64,000 nt of DNA from the IMG/VR virus record IMGVR_UViG_3300029049_000006; one strand, written 5' to 3'. Position numbers and translations under genes: made by a program. Origin of the DNA: a virus. Of the stretch, positions 16,329 to 63,698 are shown piece after piece (the first letter of the stretch is position 1; each line of letters begins with the position of its first letter). Under the pieces are notes generated by a model. That model ran no database searches. It saw only the letters and a list, made by a program, of their open reading frames with translations, and was not told where the DNA came from.

Positions 16329-16329
16329 C

Positions 16330-32666: not shown

Positions 32667-32988
32667 TTTCAGAGACCGCGCCCAAAAGCTTTTTTCCTTT
32701 ACTTTTCACTTTTCCGGCACAAACAATACCAGCCCATGAAGTTCCACAGCCTTTCCATGCTTTTTACGCTCCGTGGCCCTCCCCGCCCTGTTTTTCAGCT
32801 TGTCCCCCAGGCAATCCGCGAACGGTCGGATGCGCGAGGACGGGAACGCATCATTTCCCGCGTCTGAAATAAATGGCTTTCACCATCAGGCGCAATCTCC
32901 GCATTTCCTTTTTCTGTTGCCTTCGCCGGATTGCCCCCCCTCGTCAGGAAGGGAACGGCAAACCGTAACCATAAACAAAAAGATAGAA

Positions 32989-34796: not shown

Positions 34797-34909
34797 TAGG
34801 ATATTGCGATTGTTACCCGCCCAACGGGAACCCGACAACAACCAATAATAGCTGCTATCCAGAAAAGACAAGCCCCCGGCCCCTTCCTGCATCCCACCCG
34901 CGTATCGGA

Positions 34910-35308: not shown

Positions 35309-35567
35309 CAAGCTATCCCGGATTTGGCAGGATGCTCCCTGCATGCGCGACGCGCTTCAAAGGCGTGGATTGAGGCGATAAGGGCATGCTTTCGCAGGGT
35401 GTATGTGTGGGAGACGTAATGAGCTCTCCCCTTCCCCTGCGGCAAACGGGAACAACAAAAAAGGGGATGCCCTTCCTTTTTTCCAGGATGGCCGCAGTTT
35501 TCCGCTGTGGGGAAAGAAGGAAGGGTATTTTTCCGCCTCCAATTTTTCTTTTTATTCTTTGTGCCTG

Positions 35568-36955: not shown

Positions 36956-36979
36956 AACCATGCTAAGAATCCATGAGAA

Positions 36980-36996
36980 TTTGCAATCATTGCAAA
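36980..36996. repeat. intergenic palindrome, copy 12
   Basis: Perfect copy between the 36356 gene and ParB-like paralog B. Confidence 0.9.
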
Positions 36997-37017
36997 TTTC
37001 AAAAATCATTTTTACAC

Positions 37018-37860: not shown

Positions 37861-37905
37861 CACAGGCCGCTTTGATTTTTTTACCGCAATAACTTTTCTT
37901 TTTTT

Positions 37906-38769
37906 ATGCTGACGCATTCCGATTTTTGTACGTTTATTTTGTCTCATGGGCGGCCAAATAACATCAGAACTCTGCACCCATTGTTAAACACCGGAAACTA
38001 CAGCGGCCCCTGGTACATCGTCATCGACAATGAGGACCCCACGGCGGAAACCTATTATCAGCTTTACGGCTCCAACCGGGTAATCATGTTTGACAAGGAG
38101 GCCGAAGCCCGCCGTCTGGATATTGCAGATAATTTCATCCACATGAGCCGCAAGACTATTACCTATGCTCGTAATGCCTGTTATGACATTGCCAGAAACT
38201 TAGGCTACACGTATTTTTGGCAACTGGATGACGATTATTGCCGGTTCCGGTACGTAACCGACCAGGCCGGAAAATACGTGTACCACAGCATCCGCCACAT
38301 GGACGAGGCGTTGAACGCGACGCTTGATTATTATAAAAGCGTTCCTTCCCTGACCCTGCTGTCCTGGATGCAGGGCGGGGATTTACTGGGCGGCGCCAAC
38401 AGCCAGTCTTTAACCGTGGTGAAGCGAAAAGCCATGAACAGCTTTATTTGCTCTACCGAGCGCCCCATAAAGTTCCGGGGCCGGATGAATGAGGACGTAA
38501 ACACCTATGTTTCCGAGGGCAACCGGGGAAAACTCATTATGATGGCGAATTGTGCCGGCATTTTACAGACCCCCACCCAGATTAACGACGGAGGAATCAC
38601 GGAACTTTACAGGTCTTGCGGCACTTACACCAAAGCAATGTACACTGTGATGCATATGCCCTCAGTAACTACAGTGGGCATGATGCACAGCACTTTTCCC
38701 CGGATTCACCACACGATAAATTGGAACAACTGCGTTCCGAAAATTATCCGGCAGGAGCTTAAAAAATAG
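37906..38769 (+). CDS. GT-A-fold glycosyltransferase-like protein (DxD), paralog B
   Basis: FCTFILSHGRPNNI. YFWQLDDDYCRF. Collinear with paralog A throughout. Confidence 0.5.
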   Translation: MLTHSDFCTFILSHGRPNNIRTLHPLLNTGNYSGPWYIVIDNEDPTAETYYQLYGSNRVIMFDKEAEARRLDIADNFIHMSRKTITYARNACYDIARNLGYTYFWQLDDDYCRFRYVTDQAGKYVYHSIRHMDEALNATLDYYKSVPSLTLLSWMQGGDLLGGANSQSLTVVKRKAMNSFICSTERPIKFRGRMNEDVNTYVSEGNRGKLIMMANCAGILQTPTQINDGGITELYRSCGTYTKAMYTVMHMPSVTTVGMMHSTFPRIHHTINWNNCVPKIIRQELKK

Positions 38770-43111: not shown

Positions 43112-45517
43112 ATGATTCAAGCCGCCCATTTTGACATCAAGAGCGTTACCGGACTCCGGCAGGCGCTGGTACTGTCCGCAGAGTACGAAAATGAGCCTTT
43201 CCCTCTTGAGGGCTATACCCTCCACGGCAGTATCGGGACGTACCCAAGAATGGATTTGAAATGTTCCGTGGACGAAAACGGTCGCGCCCGGATTGAATGG
43301 GATTCCGTGCCTCCGGGGAACTGGAAATATGATGTGTTTCTTATTAGCGCTAGCAACGATGAAAACCCCCTCATGGAAGGGACTTTCACCGCCCTTCCAA
43401 GAATCACCCCCGTTCTGGACGATGAATCCGTCAATGATGAGGTTGGCGGGGTTCTGCACCTGCCTTCCGGGAACGAGGGAACTATCACCTTGGAGGTTGA
43501 CGGCGGATTCGTCTCAAAAGAATATGCGGCCATTGCCAAGGATGCGGCGGAGAAGGCCCAACAGGCTCTGGAAGACATCAAGCAGGCATTGCAGGGCGTA
43601 GTCACGTCGATTGGCGGGGCATCCGGAGACATCCTTCTGGATTCCGGTCTGAAAATCACCGGCGACCGGGAAAAAGGCAATGTTTCCCTGTCCCTGGACG
43701 ACAAAACGGTCGTATTGACCGCGGGCAGCCAGACGATTGACGGCGTGAAAACCTTTTCATCCCCTCCCGTCATTGCGTCCGCCCCCGCTTCCAACAATGA
43801 GGCGGCAAACAAGAAGTATGTCGATGACATGGCGAGCAAGGCCACCGGCACTACCATTAACGGCGTTTCCGGGAACATCACGCTGGACCTTCCCATGCAG
43901 CTGGACCCTGGTACCAAGTCCATGTCTGTAGATTTGAGCGGCTACGCCTCTTTGCAGACGGATAACGTTTTTGAGGGCGGCAATACGTTTATGGCCGGAA
44001 TCAAGGGCCATGTCGACAGTGTAACCGGCACTGATATCCTGTACGCAACCAACGTCCCCGGCGACAGCAGCAGCGGGCATCCGGTATTGACCATTGAGCA
44101 TATCGGTTCCAGCAACGTGAGGATTTCCTCCGGAACGCACTTGATGTTGAAAGCCAGGGGCGGCAATATTTATGCGGAATCCAGCTTCACCGCGAACAAC
44201 AGCGTCAATGTTTACGGCTCCGCCCTGTTCAATTCCGGCGTAACTGCCAGCCAGTCGCTCACCGTGGGCGGCCATGCCCAGTTCAATGATACCGTGCGCG
44301 TGGAAACCGGGAAAATCGACCCCGGCAATTTCGGCCATACCTGGACATTCGGCTCACTGATTGATTCCCCCACGACTGACGACAACAACAATCACCGGCT
44401 ATGCTGCAAATCCACTTCCGACAACGGGGCCTACATCATCTACCATGAGCGGGTGATCAACGGCGCATGGATGAAAGATAAGATTATTCCCGCCTGCCAG
44501 TTCGATTTTTCCTGGCACAACGACGCCTCCCTTGTCGTCAAGGACCCCACTAAGGCGGAACAGGCCGCCAACAAAAATTATGTGGATTCGCAGTTTAATT
44601 GCCTGTCCCTGTCCTACATGACTCTGGACACCCCGCAAACGGTCAAAGCCGAAAAAACCTTTACCGGCAACGTCAATATCAACACCAACGGAAACAACGG
44701 CACGCTGACCCTGAAAACCAGCGGGGGCGTGGGGTATCTGGTAATGGACACCGGAGAATTCTCCATTTCTGTCGATTATCTCACTCTGGGGGGCCAAACT
44801 TTCGTTCAAACGCTGAATGTGGCGGAATCCTCCCTGTTCACCGGGTCCGTAACCGTGAGCCAATACCTGAAAACAAGCTCGCTGGACGCTGAAAACGTGG
44901 AAGCGAGTACGATAAATCTGGTGGATAGTGATGACCTGTCCTGCATTGACCTGATGCCGTTTTACGGCTCTCCAGATGAAGCAAGCCTAATCTTCCATCC
45001 CGCCCAGACCGGCCCCGGCACAACGGATTACGATATACAGCTTTATTTCACCTACGGTTCCAGCGGCGGCTTCGCGGACTGGCTGGCCGGACCATCTATA
45101 CAGATGATGCGGTTCCATCCGGCAATCGGGTTTTACAATGCGGTATCTTACAGCAATCCGGTAGTGTTTCTCGGTTCAGCTACATTCAGCGCCCTGTTGA
45201 AAGCGCAGCAGGCTGAAATAGACCAGCTGAAAATCAACAGCCCGTTGTATAAGGAGGGGTTTTTAGCCTGGCAGGATGCCGGGGGCCTCTCCATGACCCG
45301 CCCCAGCATTACGGAATCCCTATACGATGCCGACAACCCCAAAGCCATGTTGAACCGGGAAGACAACGACCAGCGCTATTTGCAGGTAAAATCCCTTACG
45401 GCGGCGGAATACGCAGCCCTCGGTTCCTACAGTCTGACAACCCTGTACCGGATTACGGATGCAGACCCCGCCGCGGTATATCTGGGGGACCTGAAATTAT
45501 CCGTGGCCGCCGACTGA
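43112..45517 (+). CDS. tail fiber protein
   Basis: 801 aa. Recurring phage tail-fibre motif xxAANKKYVDD (EAANKKYVDDMASKATG, AEQAANKNYVDSQF). Gly/Ser/Thr-rich, beta-rich composition. Confidence 0.7.
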   Translation: MIQAAHFDIKSVTGLRQALVLSAEYENEPFPLEGYTLHGSIGTYPRMDLKCSVDENGRARIEWDSVPPGNWKYDVFLISASNDENPLMEGTFTALPRITPVLDDESVNDEVGGVLHLPSGNEGTITLEVDGGFVSKEYAAIAKDAAEKAQQALEDIKQALQGVVTSIGGASGDILLDSGLKITGDREKGNVSLSLDDKTVVLTAGSQTIDGVKTFSSPPVIASAPASNNEAANKKYVDDMASKATGTTINGVSGNITLDLPMQLDPGTKSMSVDLSGYASLQTDNVFEGGNTFMAGIKGHVDSVTGTDILYATNVPGDSSSGHPVLTIEHIGSSNVRISSGTHLMLKARGGNIYAESSFTANNSVNVYGSALFNSGVTASQSLTVGGHAQFNDTVRVETGKIDPGNFGHTWTFGSLIDSPTTDDNNNHRLCCKSTSDNGAYIIYHERVINGAWMKDKIIPACQFDFSWHNDASLVVKDPTKAEQAANKNYVDSQFNCLSLSYMTLDTPQTVKAEKTFTGNVNINTNGNNGTLTLKTSGGVGYLVMDTGEFSISVDYLTLGGQTFVQTLNVAESSLFTGSVTVSQYLKTSSLDAENVEASTINLVDSDDLSCIDLMPFYGSPDEASLIFHPAQTGPGTTDYDIQLYFTYGSSGGFADWLAGPSIQMMRFHPAIGFYNAVSYSNPVVFLGSATFSALLKAQQAEIDQLKINSPLYKEGFLAWQDAGGLSMTRPSITESLYDADNPKAMLNREDNDQRYLQVKSLTAAEYAALGSYSLTTLYRITDADPAAVYLGDLKLSVAAD

Positions 45518-45553: not shown

Positions 45554-46123
45554 ATGCCTATGAAAGACAACATCCTAGTGTTATGCCACAGCAACATGCA
45601 CCGCAGCCCGTTCGTTGCGGAATTCATCCGGAACTCCCCCTATGGAGACAGCTATGAAGTCCGCGACGCGGGACTGCACGTTGACAAGGAGCAGCGCGTG
45701 CCCAAATCCCTTCAGCGGGCCTTCCAGACCGTCTCCCAGGGGAGCCTGAAAAGCCACAAGTCGCGCCCGGTGGGAATCAGCGATATTCTGTGGGCGGATA
45801 AAATAATCATCATGGAGCCGGAGAACAAAAACGACCTCCTGCAAATGCTCGGAAGCCTGCACCTCTCCGACAAGCCCCGGTACGACCAGATTGTCTCCAA
45901 AATAATCTCCCTGGCCCAAATCGGCGGGAAGACAGCCGTGGACGACCCTCACCACTACTCCCCCGGAACGATCGAATACGGAAAAGTAGTATTAAACCTC
46001 GCCTGCCTGACAGCCGTCCTTCTGGAAACGTGGGAAGCCCAGCGTTCATTGAGCGGAGGGGAAAAATCCAAAGACCGGAAACCGGACGACGCGGAATCCG
46101 CAGCAGGCCCATTCGGAGCTTGA
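45554..46123 (+). CDS. low-molecular-weight protein tyrosine phosphatase (LMW-PTP/ArsC-like)
   Basis: P-loop ILVLCHSNMHRSPFVAEF gives CX5R(S) (cf. LCLGNICRSPMAE). DPYY-like loop AVDDPHHYSPG. Confidence 0.6.
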   Translation: MPMKDNILVLCHSNMHRSPFVAEFIRNSPYGDSYEVRDAGLHVDKEQRVPKSLQRAFQTVSQGSLKSHKSRPVGISDILWADKIIIMEPENKNDLLQMLGSLHLSDKPRYDQIVSKIISLAQIGGKTAVDDPHHYSPGTIEYGKVVLNLACLTAVLLETWEAQRSLSGGEKSKDRKPDDAESAAGPFGA

Positions 46124-46561: not shown

Positions 46562-47317
46562 ATGCACGCCTATTTGCTCTACACACCGGGGGAAATGCTG
46601 GAAGGCGAAGACGAACTTACCGCACTGGGCTACCATGTCCATCCTTTTCTGGGCAATAATGATACGTCCGGCCTCCGGAACAAAGTCAAACACATTCCCA
46701 GCCTGGGGCATTCCGCGTCTTATTTATCAGACGGACTGGGCTACAACTGGTGCGGCCACGTCCATGCGCTCCGCGCCAACTTTGCAACCATGCTGGAAAC
46801 TTATATGGATGCGGACGACCTCACTATATATGGGGAGTCGGACTGCGTGCCCGCATCTTATCCCCCTGTGTCCGCCGACGATATTTCCTGCGTTTGCCGG
46901 GAAGCGGTTTCCCGGCATCCTGAAATCGGCATTATCCGCCTGTACCGCCGCGCCACAACATTTAACGAGCCTACCTGGCGGAACCATGCGCCCCTTGAGA
47001 TTGTCCCGTTGAAAAAGGCGGCCAGAATCTCCAACATCCCTTTTACGAAATATTACTGTCAAACCCACGCCCTGATTATCCGCAGCCACGTCCGCCAAAC
47101 GGTCATCGACGCCATGCGGGATTACTATTTGCCCATTGACGTGCTCATATCTTATTTGTCCCAGATTGGGACCGTCCCCATGTGGCACACCAGCATCAAT
47201 CTAATGCTTCAACGCCCCCACAGTACGGGAAAGAGGCTGGCGGACTGGCAGCGCAAACATTTTGTTCCGGCAGCGGACTATTGGCGTGACAGGCCCGGAC
47301 TGACTGGAAAAAGGTAG
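46562..47317 (+). CDS. hypothetical protein
   Basis: 251 aa ATG ORF. Follows a repeat-rich non-coding region. Confidence 0.45.
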   Translation: MHAYLLYTPGEMLEGEDELTALGYHVHPFLGNNDTSGLRNKVKHIPSLGHSASYLSDGLGYNWCGHVHALRANFATMLETYMDADDLTIYGESDCVPASYPPVSADDISCVCREAVSRHPEIGIIRLYRRATTFNEPTWRNHAPLEIVPLKKAARISNIPFTKYYCQTHALIIRSHVRQTVIDAMRDYYLPIDVLISYLSQIGTVPMWHTSINLMLQRPHSTGKRLADWQRKHFVPAADYWRDRPGLTGKR

Positions 47318-49812: not shown

Positions 49813-49829
49813 TTTGCAATCATTGCAAA
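49813..49829. repeat. intergenic palindrome, copy 16
   Basis: Perfect copy + T7. Upstream of the sulfation cassette. Confidence 0.9.
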
Positions 49830-49879: not shown

Positions 49880-50545
49880 ATGAGCGTTTTTACCTATCCG
49901 GTCGAGGGCCTTCGCCGCGTGCTGATTCCGCAGAAATGCGGCTGGACGCTAGCCTGGGATTCCCTCCCCCGCTGGAACGGTCGGGTGGTGATTGACTCCA
50001 ATGACTACCCCGCGAAAAATCTGGACTGCATGTTTGTCAGGGAGCCGGTGGCCCGGTTCATGTCCGCTTTCCGGAACAAGATAGAGTTCGGGCCGCAGTC
50101 CTACCCCAAAAACGCCAACGGTCAGTTCAACGTCTGGTCCGGCATCCAATGGGTTGCCTGTGTGTGCGGCATCCCCCCGGACCTGGTGCAGAAGCAGGTT
50201 ACTGTGTCCCTGATGCTGGACGTGTTGGAGGACATCATCAAAAAAAAACCGAGGGCGGCGCAATACAACCACGCCGTACTTGACCCGCACTGGTCCCCGC
50301 AGGTCTATCATGTGGCCCCCGGCCATATTCCGGAACTGCTCATTGACCCCCGGAACGATTTTTCCGTCCTGGACAGATTAAAAATTGACTACTCTACGCA
50401 CAATCACAATAATACCAGCCGTTATGGAGGCTACCAGCCTACACCGGAAGAGGTCGCACGCATCAAGGCCCTGTATGCCGAGGATGTAGCACTTTACGCC
50501 AGATACCAGCATGATTACGCCCTTCGCCAGTTACCCGCCCAGTGA
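49880..50545 (+). CDS. sulfotransferase-family protein
   Basis: 5'-PSB-like CMFVREPVARFMSAFRNKI (cf. FVFVRNPWDRLVSAY). C-terminal YGGYQPTPEEVARIKALYAEDVALY resembles the Stf0 / Sulfotransfer_3 tail. ATG 49880 (the track starts at GTG 49850). Confidence 0.55.
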   Translation: MSVFTYPVEGLRRVLIPQKCGWTLAWDSLPRWNGRVVIDSNDYPAKNLDCMFVREPVARFMSAFRNKIEFGPQSYPKNANGQFNVWSGIQWVACVCGIPPDLVQKQVTVSLMLDVLEDIIKKKPRAAQYNHAVLDPHWSPQVYHVAPGHIPELLIDPRNDFSVLDRLKIDYSTHNHNNTSRYGGYQPTPEEVARIKALYAEDVALYARYQHDYALRQLPAQ

Positions 50546-51362
50546 CGCCCCGGAGTTCATCAAATACTCCCACCACCTGATTGACCTCGCCTTGAGAAAA
50601 GCCCGGCGTCCGGCCATCCTCTGTTCCTACGGCAAGGATTCCGGCGTTGTCCTGCATTTGCTCTCCCAGCACGTCGATTTATCCCGCATCGACGTTATTT
50701 ACATTGATTCCACTTTTGAATTCCCGGCGTTTTACAAGCACATTGCCAGGATGAAGGCTTTTTTCGGCATCCGGCACGGCGGCCCTCATGACGTGCGCTG
50801 CCAGAATAACCAGGCCATCCGTTCCGGCATGTCCTACGACAACACCCCGGTGCTCAAGTTGACGCAGACCCTGAAAACCGACGTATTGGTGCAGGTGCTG
50901 AAAGAGCGGAATATTGACTTTCTGTTCACCGGCATCCGGCGCGACGAAGAGGGTTCTCGCGCCAAGGAACGTTATTTTTCCTACCGGGAAGCCGACGGCA
51001 CGTTTGACCCGGTAAGCAACCGCCCCGGATTCTACCCGTTGGATGGGCTGGATGTGCAGTCCCCCGGTTCCGGGCACTATCGCGTCAATATCCTTCTGAG
51101 CTGGTCGGAGCGGGACGTATGGGAGTACACGGAAAAGCACCTGCTTCCTGTCTGCCCGCTGTACCTTGCCAAAAACGGGAAACGCTACCGCTCCCTTGGA
51201 GACGAGCCGGTGACTACTCCGGTGGATTCCGACGCTGACAGTATCGACAAAATCATTAAGGAGCTGTACCATACCAGCGTGCCGGAACGGGCATGCCGGA
51301 AATCACAGGATAATTCCGCGCCGTATGCAATGGAGATGCTGCGGCGCAAGGGATTCTGCTAA
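50511..51362 (+). CDS. cysD: sulfate adenylyltransferase subunit 2-like (CysD/NodP, PAPS-reductase superfamily PP-loop)
   Basis: PP-loop ILCSYGKDSGVVLHLL. LFTGIRRDEEGSRAKERYFSYRE matches the CysD signature GxRRDEEKSRAKERIFSFRD. LSWSERDVWEYTEKHLLPVCPLYL (cf. NWTELDIWQYI..E.IP.VPLYF). Confidence 0.75.
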   Translation: MITPFASYPPSDAPEFIKYSHHLIDLALRKARRPAILCSYGKDSGVVLHLLSQHVDLSRIDVIYIDSTFEFPAFYKHIARMKAFFGIRHGGPHDVRCQNNQAIRSGMSYDNTPVLKLTQTLKTDVLVQVLKERNIDFLFTGIRRDEEGSRAKERYFSYREADGTFDPVSNRPGFYPLDGLDVQSPGSGHYRVNILLSWSERDVWEYTEKHLLPVCPLYLAKNGKRYRSLGDEPVTTPVDSDADSIDKIIKELYHTSVPERACRKSQDNSAPYAMEMLRRKGFC

Positions 51363-51392
51363 CAGTTCCATTTTTTCCTTTCCGCTCTTGCC

Positions 51393-52115
51393 ATGATACC
51401 GGATGACCCGTTCACCCAGCCGGAAAAAAAACCTGAAAAGCCGGGAGGCATCACGCAAATCTGGATAGGCGGAGAAGATAATATACCGCAGGAAATGCGG
51501 GAATGGATGTCCGGGGTGCGGGCCTACTGTAACCGGTTCGACCTTCCGTACCGCTGCTTGAACGGGAGGCAATGCAAGGCCCTGCTGGATGAGTTCGGCA
51601 TCCCGTTCAACCCTACCGGGGGCATCATGAGCCTGACCGACATGGCGCGGGTGTGCGCCCTGAAAAAATGGGGCGGCTGGTATCTGGACACAGACGTAAA
51701 AATCCAGCGTCCGGCAGCCTTCCATGATTACTCGGTTTCCGTCTGCGAACAGGAGCCTTCTACTGTTTTTTACAATGCCATCACCTACGGCTGGATGTAC
51801 AATCACGGAGTGCTTTACGCTTCCGGGGACGATTCCTGTTTGTTTCTGGATGTCATGCTGGATGCGTGCCGGGAGACGTACAGGACAGTCCATGCTTCCG
51901 ATTCCGGGTGGGGGCTGGAAAGCACCGTTCAAAATATAGTGCATCATGACCGCCAATGGGTAGGCTGGCATCGAGGACTGCCAAAGGGCGTTTGCGATTG
52001 CGGCAATCCGTCCAGCATGATTAACCATGTGCTTTATGGGACCTGGTACAATAGCGCACACATGACTCCCGGCATCAAGGACGCGGAAACTTATTCAAGG
52101 GTTTCCGATTTGTAG
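51393..52115 (+). CDS. glycosyltransferase, GT32-like (Gly_transf_sug, DxD)
   Basis: ITQIWIGGEDNIPQE. KKWGGWYLDTDVK. Matches the conserved QIWIG / GGxYxDxD blocks. Confidence 0.55.
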   Translation: MIPDDPFTQPEKKPEKPGGITQIWIGGEDNIPQEMREWMSGVRAYCNRFDLPYRCLNGRQCKALLDEFGIPFNPTGGIMSLTDMARVCALKKWGGWYLDTDVKIQRPAAFHDYSVSVCEQEPSTVFYNAITYGWMYNHGVLYASGDDSCLFLDVMLDACRETYRTVHASDSGWGLESTVQNIVHHDRQWVGWHRGLPKGVCDCGNPSSMINHVLYGTWYNSAHMTPGIKDAETYSRVSDL

Positions 52116-52164
52116 CCCGGAATAATTTTTGCAAAAAAGAAAAAACAATGGTAATACGTAGCGC

Positions 52165-53016
52165 ATGCCACGTGAAAAAATCATCATTGCCGTGTGCGGA
52201 ATCCCTGACACGGGAAAAAGCACCTTTATCGCCAACGCCGCAAAACACCTGAACGGAATGGAGGTCCAACCGGATGCCCTGTGCGTAGAACAGCAGACCG
52301 GGAAAACCATTGCAACCTCATTCATCACCACCTGGGGCGAAGAGTGGCAGCGGGACGGAAAAACCTGCGATTTGGTCTTTGTGGACTGCCCCGGCCATGT
52401 GCAGTTCCTTCCGGAGATTGTCGCGGGCTTGTCTGCGGCCCATGCCTACATTGTCATCCATGACGCTTCCCGCATTGAGGCGAGCCAGGCATATGCCCGG
52501 ATGCTGGAAGATGTCGCAGGCGTGCTTAGCGTGCCTCGGCTCGCCACCCTCTACAGCCATTGCGACAGCACCGGGGAATACTGCTACAACGTAGGTGTTG
52601 ACAACCGGCTTCCGGGAACTGCCGAAAGGGTTATCCGGCGTGCCCTGGCGGGCGGCAAAGATAAGCTGGTCCATCCCACGGCATCCTGGCTTGGCTACAT
52701 CCGGCAGGAGCCGTTCGATACGCCTGATGCCCGGCACAGGGTGTCCGTCATCTGGCTTCCCTGCGCTTCCCGGCTCACTCCGGTTTCCCTTCTCCGGGCG
52801 GAGCTTCCCGACCGAACGGTCGAACTCGGAGAGGCTGGCTCCGTTCTAGACCCCATCCCCAGGGAAAGCGACTTCCAGACCGCCCCATTGATACGGCACA
52901 TTTACCTGCAATTCCCTGTCCGGTATCTGGACCCCGTGCGCTTCCTGATTTGCGACTCGGAGCTGGGAACGGTCGGAGTCGGAACAGTAACCCCGTGGGA
53001 AACCCAAATGTTATGA
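52165..53016 (+). CDS. EF-Tu-like GTPase, CysN/NodQ-like (GTPase domain only)
   Basis: G1 AVCGIPDTGKSTFI (cf. GHVDHGKST). G3 DCPGHVQF. No clear NKxD. 283 aa, shorter than CysN. Confidence 0.45.
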   Translation: MPREKIIIAVCGIPDTGKSTFIANAAKHLNGMEVQPDALCVEQQTGKTIATSFITTWGEEWQRDGKTCDLVFVDCPGHVQFLPEIVAGLSAAHAYIVIHDASRIEASQAYARMLEDVAGVLSVPRLATLYSHCDSTGEYCYNVGVDNRLPGTAERVIRRALAGGKDKLVHPTASWLGYIRQEPFDTPDARHRVSVIWLPCASRLTPVSLLRAELPDRTVELGEAGSVLDPIPRESDFQTAPLIRHIYLQFPVRYLDPVRFLICDSELGTVGVGTVTPWETQML

Positions 53017-53234
53017 GCAACGTAGCCATCCCCTACCGGCCCCACGACTGCCCCGTCTGCGGAAAGAACCTTTGCTACAGCGCCGGAAAGGACGGCTGCT
53101 ATTATTCCTGCCCGGAATGCAGGTATTCCGTCCAGTCCGGTGCGACCCTGCAAGAAGCACAAAGGCATCTTTTCATTTTTACGGCGGCAGTCCTCAAAAA
53201 TCAGAACACGCAACACGACACCATCATCCAATGA
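53013..53234 (+). CDS. small zinc-ribbon protein
   Basis: CPVCGKNLCYSAGKDGCYYSCPEC. ATG 53013 overlapping the upstream stop. Confidence 0.35.
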   Translation: MSNVAIPYRPHDCPVCGKNLCYSAGKDGCYYSCPECRYSVQSGATLQEAQRHLFIFTAAVLKNQNTQHDTIIQ

Positions 53235-53734
53235 TTATTCTTCTCACCGGCGAAAGCGGCGTAGGAAAAACGTCTGTGGCAAAAACCCTGATGAACCGGC
53301 ATCCAGGCATCCTTCTCGACGGCGATGACATGCGGGACGGATTGAACAGCGACCTCGGATTTTCCGACCGGGACATCATGGAGAACATGCGCCGGGCGGC
53401 GCACATAGCCGTACTGCTGCATGACCAGCTTCCGGAAGACCGGCGCACGGTTTACATCACCTGCATTGCCCCGCTGCTGGCCGGAAGGAATCTGGTGCAT
53501 GAGCTGTGCGGTTCCCGGTTGTGGGAGATCCGCATCCAGTATGATTACCGGGCCTCCGACGACGTAAAAGGATTGTACAAGGCGGGAACCCCCATGCGGG
53601 CCTACGAAGAGTACCCCAGCGAAACGTTGCTGCTCCCCCGCCGGATAAACCGCGTATATCGGTACTACAACGATACCGTGTGCGCTCTGGCCGCCAAAAT
53701 AGAAAAGCTGTGGCCCACAGACAAAACCGCTTGA
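53231..53734 (+). CDS. cysC: adenylylsulfate (APS) kinase
   Basis: P-loop LTGESGVGKTSVA. LDGDDMRDGLNSDLGFSDRDIMENMRRAAHIAVLL matches CysC [34 protein letters not shown] (cf. FISP). Confidence 0.8.
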   Translation: MIILLTGESGVGKTSVAKTLMNRHPGILLDGDDMRDGLNSDLGFSDRDIMENMRRAAHIAVLLHDQLPEDRRTVYITCIAPLLAGRNLVHELCGSRLWEIRIQYDYRASDDVKGLYKAGTPMRAYEEYPSETLLLPRRINRVYRYYNDTVCALAAKIEKLWPTDKTA

Positions 53735-53869
53735 CAAAGGCGTATCCGTCCCTGTACATTACCCCTGTTTTGGAGCATTCCTGACAGGATGTTTCTAGGT
53801 TTCTCCCTCCCCTTGGCGCTCTAAGGGGAGGGAGTTTTTTTGCGCTGATGTCCGTATCTTCCGCCCCAA

Positions 53870-53886
53870 TTTGCAATGATTGCAAA
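53870..53886. repeat. intergenic palindrome, copy 17
   Basis: Perfect copy + T7. Downstream of the sulfation cassette and preceded by the GC hairpin GGGGAGGGAG... Confidence 0.9.
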
Positions 53887-57441: not shown

Positions 57442-57545
57442 AAAGCGGGTCTCAAGAAGAACAACAATAGGCCGCCCGTGGTTAAGTCTGTTTGACTAGT
57501 CACGGGCGGTCTTTTATATTGGAGGCCGCATATAACCTCCGCAAC

Positions 57546-58562
57546 ATGACCAATACCGCCAGCGCCCCCAAGATTGCCGCCCTGATGTCGTCCTACAAGC
57601 GCCCGAACGACCTTGTGAAACAGATTCTGGCCCTGCTCCACCAGACCTACGACTGCCATATTTTCGTTGCCGTGAAGGGCCTGTCCGAACGGGACATAGA
57701 CACCTGCATCCGCCCGCTTTTCGCCAAAGAGATTGAGGCCGGAAAGCTCCATCTGGCGTACTATTCTAACAAGAGCCAGTTCAACAACATTCTTGACTGC
57801 TACCGGGGCTTTGACATCGAGCAGTTTGACTTGTATTGCAAAATTGACGACGACGACATCTATTTTCCGACTTACCTTGAGGACGTAGCCAAGGCCGCCG
57901 CCAGCACCAGAAAGACGAACGGGGACTACTGCGGTTCCTGGTTTTCCGGGGGCCAGTGCCTGATTGCCCAAAAGTCGAACCAGAACGGAGTATTCTTTGA
58001 CCGGGTTCCGGCAAACAATTTCAACATGTTTGGAAATACCCTCTGCATGTCGCGGGAGGATATGCGGCAACTTTACGCTATTGAGGCTGACCCGTCCCTG
58101 CTCACCCCGGAACGCTACCCGTTCATGAATTCGTGGCATGTGGTGCTGGCCGGATTTGTCGAAGACGCGCTGATTCACCGCATCATCCAGGCTAACGGGG
58201 GCGTCAACCGCTATGACGTGCTGGCGGCAGGCAATCCGGATTCCTCCGTGCGTCCGCAACTCATCACTACCGGCTACGGTTCGAGCGTCACCAGAGGCGG
58301 CTTGTACCAAAACGAGTTCTATCAGAAAAACGCCCGCCTCGGACAGTTGGAACAGGAATGGACCGTGTGCCTGTATCATCCGGACTGGGGCGGCAGGAAC
58401 TACAGGACATTCCGCCTGTTCAACGGCAGGGCCACCGATTTGCACAACATTGACCATGCCGGCTACAAGGAATTTGACGGCAATACGCTGGTGCTTAAAT
58501 GGGACAAATGGGGCACGGAAACTTTCGTCAAAAACTCCGAAGGCGTTTACTGCTTGAAATAG
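57546..58562 (+). CDS. GT-A-fold glycosyltransferase-like protein (GT2-like)
   Basis: IAALMSSYKRPNDLVKQILALLHQT (cf. GT2 vsviiPtyNrpe.L...L.Sl..Qt). DxD CKIDDDDIYF. ATG 57546 in track ORF 57492-58562. Confidence 0.5.
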   Translation: MTNTASAPKIAALMSSYKRPNDLVKQILALLHQTYDCHIFVAVKGLSERDIDTCIRPLFAKEIEAGKLHLAYYSNKSQFNNILDCYRGFDIEQFDLYCKIDDDDIYFPTYLEDVAKAAASTRKTNGDYCGSWFSGGQCLIAQKSNQNGVFFDRVPANNFNMFGNTLCMSREDMRQLYAIEADPSLLTPERYPFMNSWHVVLAGFVEDALIHRIIQANGGVNRYDVLAAGNPDSSVRPQLITTGYGSSVTRGGLYQNEFYQKNARLGQLEQEWTVCLYHPDWGGRNYRTFRLFNGRATDLHNIDHAGYKEFDGNTLVLKWDKWGTETFVKNSEGVYCLK

Positions 58563-58643: not shown

Positions 58644-60032
58644 ATGAGATTTCTTCCCTCTCTTTTCAGGCGGAAAGGCCACGAACAGCGGTTGTCCGTA
58701 GCATGGAACAGTCTGGATTCCCGCCAACGGTCGGTCCTCATGGAACTCGCGTCCTATCTCGGCAACGGCATTGACGGGGACCGGACAAACCTCCGGTATA
58801 TCGACCTGGTGAACCATGTCCGGGTGGACCCCCTGGACAGCTATGAAAAGTACATCAAAACAGGGACCGGCCAGGTATGGGCTACGTTTGTAGCCTGCAA
58901 TCTGGTGGCTAATGTTTTGGTGTCAACTACGTTCCAGGTTGTCAAATCCGGCTCCGATACGCCCCTTGACAGCACGCGCCACCCGCTGGCAAAGCTAATC
59001 GCGCAGCCGAATGAGTGGGACTCGTGGGAGGATTTAATCTATCAGTGGGTATTCCACATCAAACTGACCGGCAACGCGTACTGGCTGAAAAACCAAGTCA
59101 ACGGGTACGGGCAGCCCCTGGAACTGATTCCCCTGCTTCCGCAGTACGTCAAAATCATCCCTGACCAGACTTCCAGAATCAAGGAATACCAATACCAGGT
59201 CAATGGCCTGTGCATTACATACGCTCCGGAAGAAATTATCCATTTCCGGAGGCCCCACCCCAATTCCTTCATCCTTGGTCTGGGAGATATTGAGCCGTCA
59301 AAGTCATTGTATGAATCCTTTATTACCGGGGACGAGCTTCAAAAGCGGGTGTACTCCAATGGGGCCGTCATCAGCGGCGTATTGAGCAATGATTCCGATT
59401 TGCTCTCACAGGAGGAATTTGACCATGCCGTGGAGAGCTTCCGCTCCAAATACGAGGGGAAGAAAAACGCGGGAAAAACGGCGTTCCTTTCCGGCAAATG
59501 GAGCTATACCCGGCTCGGAATGACCAACAGCGAGCTTCAAAGCCTTGAGCGGGATAAGACCAGCGTTGAGCAGATATTCATCAATCACGGGGTTCCCCTT
59601 TCCGTTGCGGGCATTAAGGACGCCGCCAACTACGCCACATCCAAACAGGACGCTATCGCGTTCCGGAAACAGGCATGCCTTCCGCTGGCCGATATTCTTG
59701 TAGGCAAATTGAACTCGGAAAAAGGGCTGACACCCGCCTACCGGGATAAAACCCTGAAAATCGACTATAACATGTCTGGCCTCGTGGACATTGAGCAGAT
59801 GGTGAAGGAAAACCAGCCGTTGCTGGAATCCGGGGCGCTTACCCCGAACGAACTCCGGGAAAAGTGCGGCCTGTCCAGAGTTGACGACCCTTATCTTGAC
59901 CAGTATTTCATCAAATCGAATCTGGTTCCTATGGAACTGTCCGGGATGGGTATGGGAGAGTCGCTGGAAGAAAGCGCCCGAACGGTCGTGACCGGATTCA
60001 CCAAATCTCGTTGCGGCGGCCACCCGCATTGA
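58644..60032 (+). CDS. portal protein
   Basis: 462 aa. Position between the chaperonin and head-morphogenesis genes. Composition and size typical of HK97/SPP1-type portals. Motif-level support is weak. Confidence 0.55.
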   Translation: MRFLPSLFRRKGHEQRLSVAWNSLDSRQRSVLMELASYLGNGIDGDRTNLRYIDLVNHVRVDPLDSYEKYIKTGTGQVWATFVACNLVANVLVSTTFQVVKSGSDTPLDSTRHPLAKLIAQPNEWDSWEDLIYQWVFHIKLTGNAYWLKNQVNGYGQPLELIPLLPQYVKIIPDQTSRIKEYQYQVNGLCITYAPEEIIHFRRPHPNSFILGLGDIEPSKSLYESFITGDELQKRVYSNGAVISGVLSNDSDLLSQEEFDHAVESFRSKYEGKKNAGKTAFLSGKWSYTRLGMTNSELQSLERDKTSVEQIFINHGVPLSVAGIKDAANYATSKQDAIAFRKQACLPLADILVGKLNSEKGLTPAYRDKTLKIDYNMSGLVDIEQMVKENQPLLESGALTPNELREKCGLSRVDDPYLDQYFIKSNLVPMELSGMGMGESLEESARTVVTGFTKSRCGGHPH

Positions 60033-60049
60033 ACGCGCGTCGTGAACTT

Positions 60050-60694
60050 ATGGATTGGGAAACGACAATAAAAACCCTGCGGATGGCCGTGGACTGCATT
60101 GGCCCCACCATCACCGCCCTTGGGGCCATTGCCCTTTTTTTCAAGCGGGTGCGGAAGTACCTTTATCTGGTATTCATTCACAAGCCGGAAATGGACAGGA
60201 GGCTTTACGATAAAGTAGCCGAAATCCTGAATCGGATAGGAAAGATTGAATCCGAACTCCGTCTCAATGACGACTCCACCGTCAAGGATGCCGTTGCCCG
60301 GCTGGAAGCCTACAGGCGTTATTCCGCGACCAACTCCATGTCCCTGATTTTCGAGCTGGATAAAACCGGGAACATTGTGCTGGTCACGGACGCTTTATGC
60401 CAGCTGGTGGAAACGGTCAGGGCCGAAGACCTGAAAGGGCAGAACTGGCGGCAATTCGTCTATATCGAAGACGAACCCAGAGTGACGGCCAACCTGTGCA
60501 CCGCTGTGAAAACAGGCTCGTCCACCCGGACGAAAGTCCGCGTCATCAACAGCAACAACATATCCAGAGGCGACTGGTATGTCCGGCTTAATGCCGTTAC
60601 CCGGCCTGACAACTCCGTCATCATGTATATCGGGCTTTTGTACCCGGCTGACGAACTGGCCACCAGCATCTACACGGAAAACAACTGGAAATAG
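60050..60694 (+). CDS. hypothetical protein with N-terminal TM segment
   Basis: ATG 60050. TITALGAIALFF hydrophobic helix. Confidence 0.4.
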   Translation: MDWETTIKTLRMAVDCIGPTITALGAIALFFKRVRKYLYLVFIHKPEMDRRLYDKVAEILNRIGKIESELRLNDDSTVKDAVARLEAYRRYSATNSMSLIFELDKTGNIVLVTDALCQLVETVRAEDLKGQNWRQFVYIEDEPRVTANLCTAVKTGSSTRTKVRVINSNNISRGDWYVRLNAVTRPDNSVIMYIGLLYPADELATSIYTENNWK

Positions 60695-60744: not shown

Positions 60745-62985
60745 ATGCCGCCCATACGCACCGCAACGTTCAGAAAAGCTTCCCCGGCCCTGCTTTTTAA
60801 ATCCTACCGGCAATCCAAGGTTCCGGAAGGCGGCTGGACGCAGGAAAGCTTTTACACGGAAAACGGCGTTCGGCTGGTGCAGGACTGGGTGAAAATGAAC
60901 CGCTCTGCGACGACAAAAAACGCGAGAATGCTTGCCCGGACGCTGAAAGCCCTGATTGAAAAAATACTCTACGAGATTGCCGACCGCATGGAAGGCATTG
61001 CGGAGTTGTCCGAAAAGAAGCACCCGCACACGTACCAGCGAAAAACTACCGTGTTATCCGGAGTATGGGGCAACATCATCAATGAAGTCCTGCACGATTT
61101 TTCCGGGGACGTGCAAGAGGCCGTCCAGCCCTACATGCAAAGCACGGCTGATGACGTTGTGGACAAGGGGCGGCAACTGCTTGGGTCAACTGTGAACAGG
61201 ACGGACACCACAACAATTAACAATTCCGTGCGTCAGGCCGCCAGGGAGATAACCAGCGTGCCGAACACCATCCGGGACCGGATTAACCGCATCATCCAGC
61301 GTGAGCATGACAAGGGGTCCTCGGTGTTCGACACGATTGCCGCCGTGCGCCGACAAACCCCCTCATTGGCCGCTGGCCGCATTGCCACAATCGTCCGCAC
61401 CGAACTTGGACGGGCTGCGGACATTGCCAATATTCAGGCGGCTATGGAAGGGACCTGCACGCACATGTCGGTTATCGGGTGTGAAACCATTGAACGCACC
61501 TACACCTACCGGGGCCTGCCGACGTGCAATATCCAAAACGTTCCCATCAACGAATGCATGAACGTCCGGTTCCATCCGAACCATACCGGGTGCTGGGTTC
61601 CTTCGGCATTCAGACAGTCGGACGGTTCAACCCCGGAACTGGACCCCCGCAGCAATTCCGGCCACGGGACTTTTGAGGAACAGCGGGAAAACCCGGAAGG
61701 GAACAGCGCCCCGTTCCTGAATCCAAGACCGGCCCCCGGCCCGGAAATGGAAAACCCGGTAACATTGGCTCCCACGCCGGAACCGCCCCCGGCCCCTATA
61801 GACATTCTTCCCCAGGGGTCATTGTCGCCAGTGCTGCCGACCACTCCGGAAAACTGCGGTGCGCCGGTTATCGGAAGGCCGCTTCCGTCTGGGAAGCCGC
61901 CTAAAAATGTGCTTGATTTTGACACGCTTCCGGCGACCTACCAGGACACAGAAGAAGTGCGCAATGCCGTCAGGGTGATTCGCAATCACGCCAGTTCCGC
62001 GACAAGGTTTAACGCGAATGATGAGGACATTTACAACTTTTTCCGAACGGTCGGAGTTCTCCCGGATGCTATGGAATCCCTCTTGTTGCAGGACATCCCC
62101 ATCAATCTGGCGGACACCACCGAACTGGTCATCCGCGCAGGACGCACCTTTGACTGCATTGGAAGCGTAGGCGGAAAGCAGTCATTTTTGTACCGGCGCA
62201 CCATATGCGTGGATGAACAGGGCAAATTGTACATCCACCACAACAGCTTTGAATTGTGGGCGCAATATCAGGGGAACGGGTACGCGAGAAAACTGCTGCA
62301 AAACCAGATTAACTTTTACGACGCTATCGGGGCCGAATATATCACACTGGCGGCCAACATTGACGTTGGAGCCTACGCGTGGGCCAGATACGGATTTTAC
62401 CTGACTGGCAGCGGCGCGGAAATGCTGACAAGGCAGCTGAAACGGAACTGGAACAGGATAATCACCAAAGACCTTGCCCCGGCCAACCCGTCAGACCGGG
62501 AAGCGTTCGATGCGTCGGTAGTCCGGCTGGAACGGATTGTAAACAAAGACCCGATGGATTCCAAAGACCTTTGGGCCATTGCGTCCGAACAGGTCAAAGT
62601 GCGTACCCCCGGAGGCCAGGAACGGAAACTGGGCTATCATGTGCTGACCGGAACCTTCTACGATGCCCAGCTGGATTTGAACAATCCGGAACAGTACGCG
62701 CGGCTGGTGTCGTACATCAGCCACAATCCTACGATTACCAAGGGGCGGGAGCTGTACTCCCTTGTTGACGGGCATCAGCAGGATGCCATGCTTCATGCGG
62801 AGTTCCTTTCCAGCGTATGGGGGAATTTCCGTGCCGACTTTGCCGGGGTGGAACAGGCCATACGTTCCGGATGCCCGGAAGACGAGGCGTTGTGGCTTTA
62901 TGCGTCCCCGGAATCCGTGGCGCTCATGGCCCCGCAACTGCCGCAGGAATTGTACACCCGCTATCTGGCCCTTCTAAACCGATGA
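60745..62985 (+). CDS. Mu-F/SPP1-gp7-like head morphogenesis protein with C-terminal GNAT-like domain
   Basis: AAGRIATIVRTELGRAADIANIQA matches the Mu-F motif (RAxxIARTExxRA). C-terminal QGNGYARKLL (GNAT motif A Q/RxxGxG/A) and NIDVGAYAWARYGF (motif B). Confidence 0.55.
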   Translation: MPPIRTATFRKASPALLFKSYRQSKVPEGGWTQESFYTENGVRLVQDWVKMNRSATTKNARMLARTLKALIEKILYEIADRMEGIAELSEKKHPHTYQRKTTVLSGVWGNIINEVLHDFSGDVQEAVQPYMQSTADDVVDKGRQLLGSTVNRTDTTTINNSVRQAAREITSVPNTIRDRINRIIQREHDKGSSVFDTIAAVRRQTPSLAAGRIATIVRTELGRAADIANIQAAMEGTCTHMSVIGCETIERTYTYRGLPTCNIQNVPINECMNVRFHPNHTGCWVPSAFRQSDGSTPELDPRSNSGHGTFEEQRENPEGNSAPFLNPRPAPGPEMENPVTLAPTPEPPPAPIDILPQGSLSPVLPTTPENCGAPVIGRPLPSGKPPKNVLDFDTLPATYQDTEEVRNAVRVIRNHASSATRFNANDEDIYNFFRTVGVLPDAMESLLLQDIPINLADTTELVIRAGRTFDCIGSVGGKQSFLYRRTICVDEQGKLYIHHNSFELWAQYQGNGYARKLLQNQINFYDAIGAEYITLAANIDVGAYAWARYGFYLTGSGAEMLTRQLKRNWNRIITKDLAPANPSDREAFDASVVRLERIVNKDPMDSKDLWAIASEQVKVRTPGGQERKLGYHVLTGTFYDAQLDLNNPEQYARLVSYISHNPTITKGRELYSLVDGHQQDAMLHAEFLSSVWGNFRADFAGVEQAIRSGCPEDEALWLYASPESVALMAPQLPQELYTRYLALLNR

Positions 62986-63698
62986 ACTTTGTCTGGCTCA
63001 ACAACCAATTCGGCAACCAGATATGGCAGATTGCCGTGGCGACGTTTTTTTTTGGAAGGGGGAACTTTGCCGCGATAACCTCCTATGCCGTGCCGCTGAA
63101 AGGAATTGGCTTCCACGCATTTCTGCACGTGCCCTGTTTTCCGTTCAACCGGGAGACAAGCGCCCTCGCCCCGCAAACGGTTTACGTCAAAAGAGGGGTT
63201 CCCATTCCTCGCGGCACAAACTCCATCAGTGACGGGCAGTTGCAGGACGTAGCCTATTTGCGTAATCTGGATGCCCGCCAGTTATTGACGTTTGACGGCA
63301 TTGACAACGATTTCCGCATTGTCCATGTCCGGGGCGGCGATTTTTTTACCAGCAAGCCGCACAGGCCCTACGTCAAAAACCGGGACTGGTATCTTAAAGC
63401 CATTGACGCTGTGCCCGATATGCGGAAGCACCGGGACAAAACAGTATTGCTTACAAACGACAAAAAATACGCGGGGAAAATCCTTCCCGAATTTCCCATA
63501 CTGGACGTGCCGCCCTTGACTGCGTTCCGGCTGATGATGGGCTGTCGCTCTCTGGTTATATCCGCGTCATCCTTTGGCTGGTGGGCCGGGTATCTGAATC
63601 CGTCAGCGCAGATTGCCGCTCCTTCCCGGTGGTGCGGCGCCGGAGAGGATTCGGCGAAATATTACGGGCATAGCCGCTTGATGTTCATACCTGATTAA
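62982..63698 (+). CDS. glycosyltransferase, GT11 (alpha-1,2-fucosyltransferase)-like
   Basis: N-terminal LNNQFGNQIWQIAVA (cf. GGLGNQMFQYA). C-terminal SSFGWWAGYLNP (cf. STFSWWAAYL). ATG 62982 overlaps the upstream stop. Confidence 0.5.
   Translation: MNFVWLNNQFGNQIWQIAVATFFFGRGNFAAITSYAVPLKGIGFHAFLHVPCFPFNRETSALAPQTVYVKRGVPIPRGTNSISDGQLQDVAYLRNLDARQLLTFDGIDNDFRIVHVRGGDFFTSKPHRPYVKNRDWYLKAIDAVPDMRKHRDKTVLLTNDKKYAGKILPEFPILDVPPLTAFRLMMGCRSLVISASSFGWWAGYLNPSAQIAAPSRWCGAGEDSAKYYGHSRLMFIPD

Follow-up and report, generated by a model that had tools for sequence, protein, structure and literature searches.

A predicted sulfate-activation and sulfotransferase operon in the late region of a tailed phage, with a glycan as the probable acceptor

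Structure of the Cassette

The 64,000-nucleotide sequence of the virus record IMGVR_UViG_3300029049_000006 (hereinafter the window, i.e., the whole stretch of DNA that was analyzed) contained six co-directional open reading frames (ORFs) on the + strand at positions 49880–53734. Their products of 221, 283, 240, 283, 73, and 167 aa were assigned to a sulfotransferase (ST), a CysD-type small subunit of sulfate adenylyltransferase, a probable glycosyltransferase (GT), a minimal GTPase, a zinc-ribbon peptide, and an adenosine 5′-phosphosulfate (APS) kinase, respectively. The family or fold of the four enzymes, the operon structure, the conservation of the genes, purifying selection, and the recurrent linkage of ST, CysD, mini-GTPase, and APS kinase were computed in this work. 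An initial annotation had already placed six consecutive + strand genes here; the ORFs were found at those coordinates, an identical six-gene set was obtained in independent gene calls on 10 related contigs, and every motif that had been quoted was present in the proteins. The overlapping stops and starts described in that annotation occur at three of the five junctions (35 nt between the ST and CysD genes, and an ATGA overlap at both the GTPase/zinc-ribbon and the zinc-ribbon/APS kinase junctions), whereas gaps of 30 nt and 49 nt separate the GT gene from its neighbors. All six genes were under purifying selection (dN/dS from 0.01 to 0.33 relative to strain variants), and the cassette was intact in all 10 of the distinct genomic contexts of this phage examined.

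A perfect palindrome of 17 bp, TTTGCAAT[C/G]ATTGCAAA, was found in 20 copies in the window (0.05 expected), at sites from 676 to 63716 that included 7003, 14302, 32650, 43004, 49813, 53870, and 60718. It usually had AA in front of it and TTTTTTTC behind it, lay nearly always between blocks of + strand genes, and looks like the phage's own promoter/operator element or the binding site of a regulator. Copy 16 (49813–49829, no strand; TTTGCAATCATTGCAAA followed by a T-run) is located about 50 nt upstream of the first gene of the cassette and is a candidate promoter/operator, and copy 17 (53870–53886, no strand) stands at the start of the next transcription unit, so the bracketing of the cassette by these two copies, as described earlier, was found in place. 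The last stop codon is followed by a predicted intrinsic terminator on the + strand (53803–53834 or, in the longer delimitation, 53803–53844; a stem of 14 bp with nine G–C pairs, then a T-run). Because palindrome copies 16 and 17 bracket the cassette and a strong terminator follows its last stop codon, the cassette is, judging by these signals, one transcription unit.

The window carried genes of a tailed phage, including those encoding DnaB, PolA, a primase, a helicase, a UvsX-like recombinase, and TerL (31146–32636). The location of the cassette between tail fiber and portal genes, also proposed in the initial annotation, agrees with a tail-fiber-like gene upstream (43112–45517) and the portal gene downstream (58644–60032). 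It should be noted that, in comparison with strain L006, the number of synonymous substitutions per site (dS) in the cassette (the CysD, GT, GTPase, and zinc-ribbon genes; 50511–53234) was 0.54–1.06 vs. 0.02–0.09 in the adjacent genes p213 and p381, i.e., a divergence 6–50 times that of these neighbors; the raised dS therefore suggests that cassette alleles have been exchanged between strains by recombination.

Enzymes Encoded by the Cassette

The product of the first gene (49880–50545, + strand) matched Pfam Sulfotransfer_2 (E-value = 6.5e-7, 30.2 bits, cutoff 22), with the match covering the 3′-phosphate-binding (3′-PB) motif only. This motif is FVREPVARFMSAFRNK, which had initially been taken for the 5′-phosphosulfate-binding (5′-PSB) string; the actual 5′-PSB motif is IPQKCGWT at residues 16–23. 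The segments PQKCGWT and VREPVARFMS correspond to the motifs PKxGxT (5′-PSB) and RxPxxRxxS (3′-PB) that bind 3′-phosphoadenosine-5′-phosphosulfate (PAPS), and K19, R54, P56, and S62 were invariant in alignment A2. Word-indexed homology searches with the ST and the GTPase returned near-identical proteins only, and further relatives were obtained from gene neighborhoods and from an exhaustive HMMER search, which yielded 16 ST relatives among 1.84 billion representatives. The family keeps PKCGWT, VRxPVxRFxS, and an invariant His137, and eight of its nine aligned members matched the Sulfotransfer_2 profile (best E-value = 2.5e-24). Together with the Sulfotransfer_2 match, the AlphaFold model (pLDDT 84, pTM 0.85), which had a sulfotransferase fold, bore out the earlier assignment of this protein. 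Its closest folds and profile matches were carbohydrate O-sulfotransferases of the Sulfotransfer_2 type, not cytosolic sulfotransferases (SULTs) or tyrosylprotein sulfotransferase (TPST). Identity to the heparan-sulfate O-sulfotransferases HS6ST, HS2ST, and HS3ST was 11–17%, and compared with these the phage enzyme is a stripped-down soluble protein of 221 aa.

The second gene (50511–51362, + strand) encodes a 283-aa PP-loop protein of the PAPS_reduct family (Pfam, 6.3e-30), with the motif SYGKDS at residues 39–44, of which S39, G41, K42, D43, and S44 were invariant in the 14-sequence alignment A3, and the motif GIRRDEEGSRAKERYFSYR. The top NCBIfam model was CysD (PRK05253, 1.7e-50, 172 bits), as against 2e-19 and 70 bits for PAPS reductase, and the best solved structure was Pseudomonas syringae CysD (1zun_A, 6.7e-29), PAPS reductases scoring 3.9e-9 or weaker. 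The alignment to 1zun_A extended over residues 20–282 and included the CysD-specific C-terminal tail; the CysD-specific motifs GxRRDEExSRAKER and, at the C-terminus, RSLG...ER..R..D...ME..R..G[FY] were aligned. The CysH redox motif ECG[LI]H was searched for in the sequence of this protein and was absent. The CysD/NodP-like nature proposed in the initial annotation is thus upheld, and a CysH- or DndC-type reading was rejected on the NCBIfam CysD score and the C-terminal alignment to 1zun_A. Identity to annotated CysDs was 37–43% (about 30–40% to the P. syringae protein of PDB 1ZUN, from which the phage CysD is separated by clade), and dN/dS was 0.01–0.13. In view of the CysD-specific evidence, the name "phosphoadenosine-phosphosulfate reductase" that this protein bears in GenBank (DAY52498.1) is misleading.

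The fourth gene (52165–53016, + strand; dN/dS 0.06–0.33) encodes a protein of 283 aa that matched Pfam GTP_EFTU (3.8e-12) over residues 6–103 only, with G1 (GIPDTGKST), G2 (Thr48), and G3 (DCPGH) intact, as in the G domain of a translational GTPase. The earlier statement that this protein is about 280 aa long and lacks an obvious NKxD proved accurate; the window copy has SHCD at that position, S131 and H132 being invariant in the family and the Asp retained in about half of the members. A β-rich C-terminal region was predicted at residues 188–275 (pLDDT about 75–88), so that the protein, with its single such region and 283 aa, does not have the three-domain architecture of CysN (G domain and β-barrels II/III, about 400 aa or more); it is about 150 residues shorter than P. 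syringae CysN (1ZUN) and scores higher against LepA and EF-Tu. NCBIfam gave 1.1e-5 for LepA vs. 0.011 for CysN, and in the search of the family profile against PDB LepA and EF-Tu came first, with CysN outside the top 60. Nevertheless, the hidden Markov model (HMM) of the family matched canonical CysN/CysNC proteins adjoining CysD (1e-17 to 1e-11), which speaks against the GTPase being unrelated to CysN. The designation "CysN-like" in the initial annotation therefore holds as regards the translational type, the quoted G1 and G3 motifs, and the location next to CysD, but not as regards any special sequence affinity to CysN.

The GTPase gene adjoins the CysD gene in the window and on contigs L001, L004, L183, L184, L187, and L188, and the two are fused (GTPase::CysD) on L014, L185, P0023, P0056, and P0075. 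In the fused forms the G domain alone is joined to the N-terminus of CysD, which is strong evidence of a shared function and of the sufficiency of the G domain. Taken together, the protein is predicted to be a minimal translational-type GTPase that stands in for CysN and works like it, although, strictly speaking, it does not belong to the CysN family. Single-chain GTPase::CysD proteins of about 440–450 aa were observed in the low-GC viral contigs P0023, P0056, P0075, L014, and L185, and no description of this architecture was found in the literature.

The sixth gene encodes the APS kinase (CysC; + strand, 53231–53734; 167 aa), with the P-loop GESGVGKTS, LDGDDMRDGLNSDLGFS, and KGLY. Its start is at 53231 (MIILLTGESGVGKT) and not at the TTG codon at 53072. 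The clear APS kinase of the initial annotation was confirmed by Pfam APS_kinase PF01583 (6.6e-19, 68.9 bits, cutoff 21.1) and by the best PDB matches, namely, the kinase domain of Mycobacterium tuberculosis CysN/CysC (1.3e-12) and human PAPSS. All of the motifs (P-loop, LDGD, DLGFS..R..N.RR, and KGLY) aligned to the M. tuberculosis CysC domain, and dN/dS was 0.03–0.09. The preceding zinc-ribbon gene (53013–53234, + strand; 73 aa), which showed weak zinc-ribbon matches in Pfam, is translationally coupled through ATGA to the GTPase gene upstream and to the APS kinase gene downstream, is conserved in relatives (dN/dS 0.04–0.31), and possibly encodes an adaptor.

The third gene (51393–52115, + strand; 240 aa) probably encodes a GT-A/DXD glycosyltransferase (GT32/Gly_transf_sug/Caps_synth-like), as suggested by the motifs QIWIGG and YLDTD and by matches to Gly_transf_sug (1.4e-4, 22.9 bits, cutoff 23; residues 80–108 only, i.e., the DXD region) and Caps_synth (0.079). 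No significant match to it was obtained in PDB, NCBIfam, PHROGs, or GenBank phages (TcdA with an E-value of about 1 at the DXD region), and the gene was seen only in this phage lineage, with dN/dS of 0.12–0.32. The automatic NCBI annotation of this protein (DAY52503.1) is "Capsular polysaccharide synthesis protein".

Distribution and Phylogeny of Related Cassettes

The TerL of this phage was found on 503 contigs, and its CysD cluster consisted of 581 sequences. GenBank contains the phage as third-party-annotated metagenome assemblies ("Caudoviricetes sp.") with automatic protein names only. IMG/VR copies with identifiers of the 7000000xxx series are presumably from Human Microbiome Project samples, and the labels of ENA copies resemble names of human gut studies. 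The GenBank phages (INPHARED) yielded neither a relative of the cassette at the DNA level nor one of the ST or the GT at the protein level, and the matches for CysD and APS kinase were distant or contaminant only.

The set of ST, CysD, mini-GTPase, and APS kinase recurred in at least three other, unrelated viral lineages with a GC content of 28–37%. In the large phages of 30–33% GC (L004, L184, L188, and L011/12) the order was ST-CysD-GTPase-APS kinase; in L185 (28% GC) it was ST-APS kinase-GTPase::CysD, with the fusion at 10001–11332; and in L014 (36.5% GC) it was GT2-ST-GTPase::CysD-GT11-APS kinase, with the fusion at 5419–6771. Two viral lineages, that of the window and that of L014 (GT2 and GT11), thus have glycosyltransferase genes within the cassette or alongside it. 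A further arrangement, ST-like-CysD-mini-GTPase with no adjacent APS kinase, was found in a bacterial lineage of 54–62% GC (L001, 9186–11562; L183, 923–3392; L187, 6906–9386), where it was surrounded by housekeeping and envelope-type genes (GT6, PAP2/LGT, and secreted proteins) and adjoined a BatA/VWA/DUF58 operon of the chromosome. The sulfotransferase gene was always directly upstream of or adjoining CysD, these bacterial relatives included.

In the neighbor-joining tree, CysDs associated with a mini-GTPase formed their own clade (100 of 100 bootstraps) apart from CysDs accompanied by a full-length CysN, and the window CysD grouped with the bacterial set (99 of 100). The bacterial sequences were the closest CysD relatives of the phage gene (56–59% identity), and this uncultured lineage may therefore be its donor or host lineage. 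No CysD above about 43% identity to the phage CysD was present among GTDB species representatives, a scan of JGI metagenomes added two further short contigs of the clade only, and the proteins of L001 and L183 were singletons.

The linkage bears on the possibility that the cassette boosts assimilatory sulfate reduction, and hence cysteine supply, during infection. Viral cysC, cysD, cysN, and cysNC have been catalogued as auxiliary metabolic genes (AMGs) of this kind (bioRxiv 10.1101/2021.01.05.425418; PMC10914622), and human-associated viruses account for the largest share of viral cysD (bioRxiv 10.1101/2021.01.05.425418). The enzyme families reported on viral contigs as cysC, cysD, cysN, and cysH are shared with the cassette; in those reports they are treated singly as assimilatory boosters (PMC10914622; bioRxiv 10.1101/2021.01.05.425418), with mention of neither a linked sulfotransferase nor a mini-GTPase, whereas the phage cassette always has the sulfotransferase and has no reductive branch. 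Neither CysH nor a PAPS/APS reductase or sulfite reductase was found in any cassette examined or in the window ORFs scanned. A plain assimilation role was rejected because no reductase accompanies the cassette and a PAPS-consuming sulfotransferase invariably does; the embedded glycosyltransferases and the restriction of this CysD clade to the sulfotransferase-linked arrangement also make such a role very improbable.

Other Genes of the Window

Two paralogous pairs of ParB_N and TAGT genes were found at 32773–38769 (TAGT, 1e-27 and 4.7e-31; identity between the pairs, 48% and 54%), each TAGT gene being preceded by ParB_N. TAGT is the TET-associated DNA glycosyltransferase family. Between the two modules lie a gene for a NeuA/KdsB-type cytidylyltransferase (35601–36359, + strand), similar to CMP-sugar-acid synthetases (PpNeuA, 1.8e-10; CMP-Kdo synthetases, 3.5e-6; family profile against PDB) and possibly associated with the cassette, and a gene for the 199-aa protein p199 (36356–36955). 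The region looks like a DNA-hypermodification locus, and glycosylation of the DNA of this phage is probable, as is known from other phages; a Pfam scan of the window revealed neither TET/5mYOX nor a hydroxymethylase or C5-methyltransferase. Homologs of the NeuA/KdsB-like gene adjoin the ST gene in L004, L012, L184, and L188 and lie near it in L001. In L188, a low-GC phage of 100 kb, positions 14492–19785, at a distance of a few kb from its cassette, carry a gene of the PF04275 phosphomevalonate-kinase family together with genes for a dUTPase, ParB_N and PAPS_reduct/DUF3440 (IbrA/IbrB-like), SNF2, and a BACON-domain protein, a set that suggests another DNA-modification system.

A glycosyltransferase of family GT11 (62982–63698, + strand; Pfam, 3.3e-10, 40.1 bits, cutoff 23.9), possibly associated with the cassette, is encoded inside the structural module, where its gene overlaps the stop codon of a 746-aa head-morphogenesis gene. 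GT11 is the α-1,2-fucosyltransferase family. The protein is homologous (BLAST) to the GT11 encoded inside the L014 sulfation cassette.

Several further features were observed in the window. Directly after the tail-fiber gene, positions 45554–46123 encode a protein similar to low-molecular-weight phosphotyrosine phosphatases/ArsC (Pfam LMWPc, 1.4e-6), with an intact CX5R(S) loop (CHSNMHRS) and DP motif, which could act on host tyrosine kinases that regulate the capsule. A low-GC island (18001–20000; 43% vs. about 52% overall) has three palindrome copies within or beside it, and two − strand ORFs of 219 and 256 aa without family matches are located at 17523–19014 in a genome otherwise encoded on the + strand. 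A protein of 338/356 aa encoded just upstream of the portal gene (57492–58562) shares a segment of 67 residues (34% identity, E-value = 4e-8) with the N-terminus of a GT6-family protein encoded near the bacterial ST-CysD-GTPase locus (L001, 2246–3262). No informative match was otherwise obtained for this protein (338 aa, 57548–58562) or for a 251-aa protein (46562–47317). Between the portal and head-morphogenesis genes, a 227-aa protein (60011–60694) showed a weak PAS_3 match (2.9e-4, below the cutoff), which is unusual for a structural module.

Discussion

The enzyme families encoded at 49880–53734 suggest that the cassette very probably makes PAPS and uses it for sulfotransfer. From the families and their arrangement we infer the catalytic activities, the nucleotide of the GTPase, the role of the zinc-ribbon peptide, and the acceptor. 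The six genes would form one late-region operon that lets the infected cell sulfate a target whatever the sulfur metabolism of the host. CysD would adenylylate sulfate to APS, with the mini-GTPase providing the drive by NTP hydrolysis that CysN supplies in bacteria, and the APS kinase would convert APS into PAPS; the zinc-ribbon peptide may tie the GTPase to the kinase, much as in a CysN-CysC fusion. The Sulfotransfer_2 enzyme would then transfer sulfate onto a hydroxyl group on a sugar acceptor, which the GT32-like enzyme, and probably also the GT11 and NeuA/KdsB-like enzymes, would help to build. The sequence from sulfate through APS and PAPS to a sulfated acceptor, probably a glycan, had been set out in the initial annotation, and it is supported by the enzyme families and the linked glycosyltransferases.

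Several observations weigh against this interpretation. The CysD scores fall under the curated NCBIfam cutoffs (PRK05253, 172 vs. 195 bits; TIGR02039, 137 vs. 396.6), which therefore points to a divergent CysD subfamily; the APS kinase likewise scores under its NCBIfam equivalog cutoff (68.5 vs. 138.7), and its C-terminal third is divergent. In the GTPase family, NKxD (G4) is replaced by S-H-[SC]-x, in sequence the protein resembles CysN no more than it does LepA or EF-Tu, and its model is of moderate confidence overall (pLDDT 61.5). The GT32 assignment is borderline. Membrane genes for glycan export or transfer were absent from the window, which has one multi-transmembrane ORF only, and the DNA-glycosylation genes of the phage, with the link of NeuA/KdsB-like homologs to the cassette, keep a DNA target alive.

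The sub-cutoff CysD scores and the atypical partner GTPase without NKxD would also fit a CysD-like/GTPase pair that adenylylates another anion or substrate or acts on nucleic acid, and DNA-related proteins of the PAPS_reduct fold do occur in phages, as in the ParB + PAPS_reduct/DUF3440 genes of L188. This is made extremely improbable by the full-length alignment to 1zun_A, including RRDEExSRAKER and the C-terminal motifs, and by the genes linked to the pair, namely, one for a genuine APS kinase in each of the four viral lineages and one for a PAPS-type sulfotransferase without exception.

As for the acceptor, a glycan is likely. It is favored because the nearest folds of the ST are carbohydrate O-sulfotransferases, because glycosyltransferases are embedded in the cassettes of two independent viruses, because a NeuA/KdsB-type gene adjoins the ST gene in the low-GC phages and lies near it in L001, and because the window GT11 gene directly follows a head-morphogenesis gene; the case for a carbohydrate is thus made up of the nearest folds and the linked sugar-related genes only. 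The acceptor is not readable from the sequence, the ST belongs to a very small, divergent family, a GT gene is missing from the L004-type and L185 cassettes, and many small molecules are sulfated by gut bacteria (PMC13449962), all of which leaves some room for an ST that acts on a small metabolite, lipid, peptide, or tyrosine, with the GT32-like gene as a passenger. Such an acceptor appears rather improbable, given that neither cytosolic SULTs nor TPST gave the best matches of fold and profile and that the window, L014, L184, and L001 have genes for glycosyltransferases or sugar activation within the cassette or adjoining it.

A glycan acceptor could also be carried by the phage's own DNA, the sulfated sugars blocking host nucleases. 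By this route, the ParB-TAGT system would glycosylate hydroxymethyl-pyrimidines, the NeuA/KdsB-like enzyme would supply a CMP-activated sugar acid, secondary glycosyltransferases would extend the chain, and the ST would sulfate it. The two ParB_N/TAGT pairs with the NeuA/KdsB-type gene and p199 between them are consistent with this route, as are the NeuA/KdsB-like homologs beside or near the ST gene in five other contigs and, in L188, the genes for a PF04275-family kinase, ParB_N + PAPS_reduct/DUF3440, and SNF2, all of them less than 8 kb away from the cassette. Phage DNA glycans built by cytidylyltransferases and secondary glycosyltransferases are documented (bioRxiv 10.1101/2023.12.21.572611), Iyer et al. 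2013 is the reference given in PMC10829341 for phage systems that glycosylate and sulfate nucleotides (an unverified lead), and the cassette proteins are all soluble, in keeping with a window devoid of membrane glycan machinery. With the known phage DNA-glycosylation pathways (5mYOX/TET, ParB, TAGT, and secondary glycosyltransferases) this genome shares the ParB-TAGT modules and a cytidylyltransferase, but it differs in that neither a TET/5mYOX dioxygenase nor a hydroxymethylase was found in the window by Pfam and in that the cassette lies outside the ParB-TAGT locus, 11 kb away and in a separate transcription unit beyond the tail-fiber gene. Moreover, sulfate is not mentioned in the accessible literature on phage DNA glycosylation, the bacterial ST-CysD-GTPase genes have housekeeping and envelope genes around them but none for DNA modification, GT11, GT6, GT2, and GT32 are typical of polysaccharide synthesis, and the GT32-like protein is acidic (isoelectric point, pI, 5.4), in contrast to the basic TAGTs (pI 8.7–9.3). 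A pattern search found TAGT in this phage and in one unrelated contig only, too few for linkage to be assessed. On this evidence sulfation of DNA glycans seems unlikely.

The preferred reading is that of a late-region PAPS operon sulfating a non-DNA glycoconjugate, and the chances that it is right as a whole appear about evenly balanced; the narrower claim that the acceptor is a non-DNA glycoconjugate of the virion or envelope is held with the same, roughly equal, measure of belief and doubt. The target would preferably be a glycoconjugate made in the cytoplasm, either a glycan on a virion structural protein or a precursor of a host envelope polysaccharide, and its sulfation would alter the charge and recognition of the virion or cell surface. 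As membrane glycan machinery is missing from the window, an envelope target would have to use that of the host.

NodQ and CysN are full-length GTPases of about 430–630 aa that have NKxD as well as domains II/III and that, as a rule, form a fusion with the kinase. The phage and viral GTPases, in contrast, have 234–283 aa and SHxD or are a bare G domain fused to CysD, and in the phage the kinase is separate, with the zinc-ribbon peptide between it and the GTPase. A further difference from the NodH and Stf0 systems is that the phage system is encoded by a virus, with a sulfotransferase that belongs to Sulfotransfer_2 and is very small. What the cassette has in common with the rhizobial NodP/NodQ/NodH and mycobacterial CysDNC/Stf0 systems is that a CysD-type ATP sulfurylase, a GTPase, and an APS kinase feed a carbohydrate sulfotransferase, not cysteine (PMC4373884).

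The initial annotation had stated that no virus-encoded PAPS pathway coupled to a sulfotransferase was described; this has to be corrected, as giant viruses already have a predicted one (PMC10117803). In Moumouvirus australiensis a sulfate adenylyltransferase (SAT)/APS kinase (Ma457) and a sulfotransferase (Ma461), and in Cotonvirus ORF724/725, are predicted within glycosylation clusters (PMC10117803). Both the Megavirinae clusters and the phage cassette thus combine PAPS synthesis and a sulfotransferase among glycosyltransferases, with sulfation of viral glycans predicted in both; the Megavirinae differ in their eukaryotic hosts, in the proposed target (capsid fibrils), and in having a bifunctional sulfate adenylyltransferase/APS kinase in one protein of 624–655 aa instead of a CysD and GTPase pair (PMC10117803). 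A targeted search of the literature found no description of a phage sulfotransferase/PAPS cassette. What is new is the occurrence of such a cassette in phages, a separate clade of CysDs whose GTPase is minimal and lacks NKxD, fused forms included, and the obligatory link to a sulfotransferase.

If the proposed function is correct, a phage that is very common in the human gut carries a sulfate-activation pathway of its own in order to sulfate a glycan. Viral cysC and cysD genes listed under sulfur assimilation need to be reread, at least one clade being hard-wired to a sulfotransferase and devoid of the reductive branch. CysD is partnered here by a minimal GTPase, reduced to the G domain alone in the fused forms, and the pair would offer a compact system in which to consider the NTP-driven, unfavorable synthesis of APS, and the mini-GTPase/CysD set is a potentially useful small module for PAPS regeneration. 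Were the acceptor a DNA glycan, this would be the first sulfated DNA base modification, and many viral cysC and cysD genes would be DNA- or glycan-decorating genes, not genes of sulfur assimilation. More generally, sulfated, possibly fucosylated, mucin-like glycans would be present on gut phage particles, on infected cells, or on phage DNA, and such glycans might influence adsorption, binding to mucus, recognition by the immune system, or resistance to nucleases.

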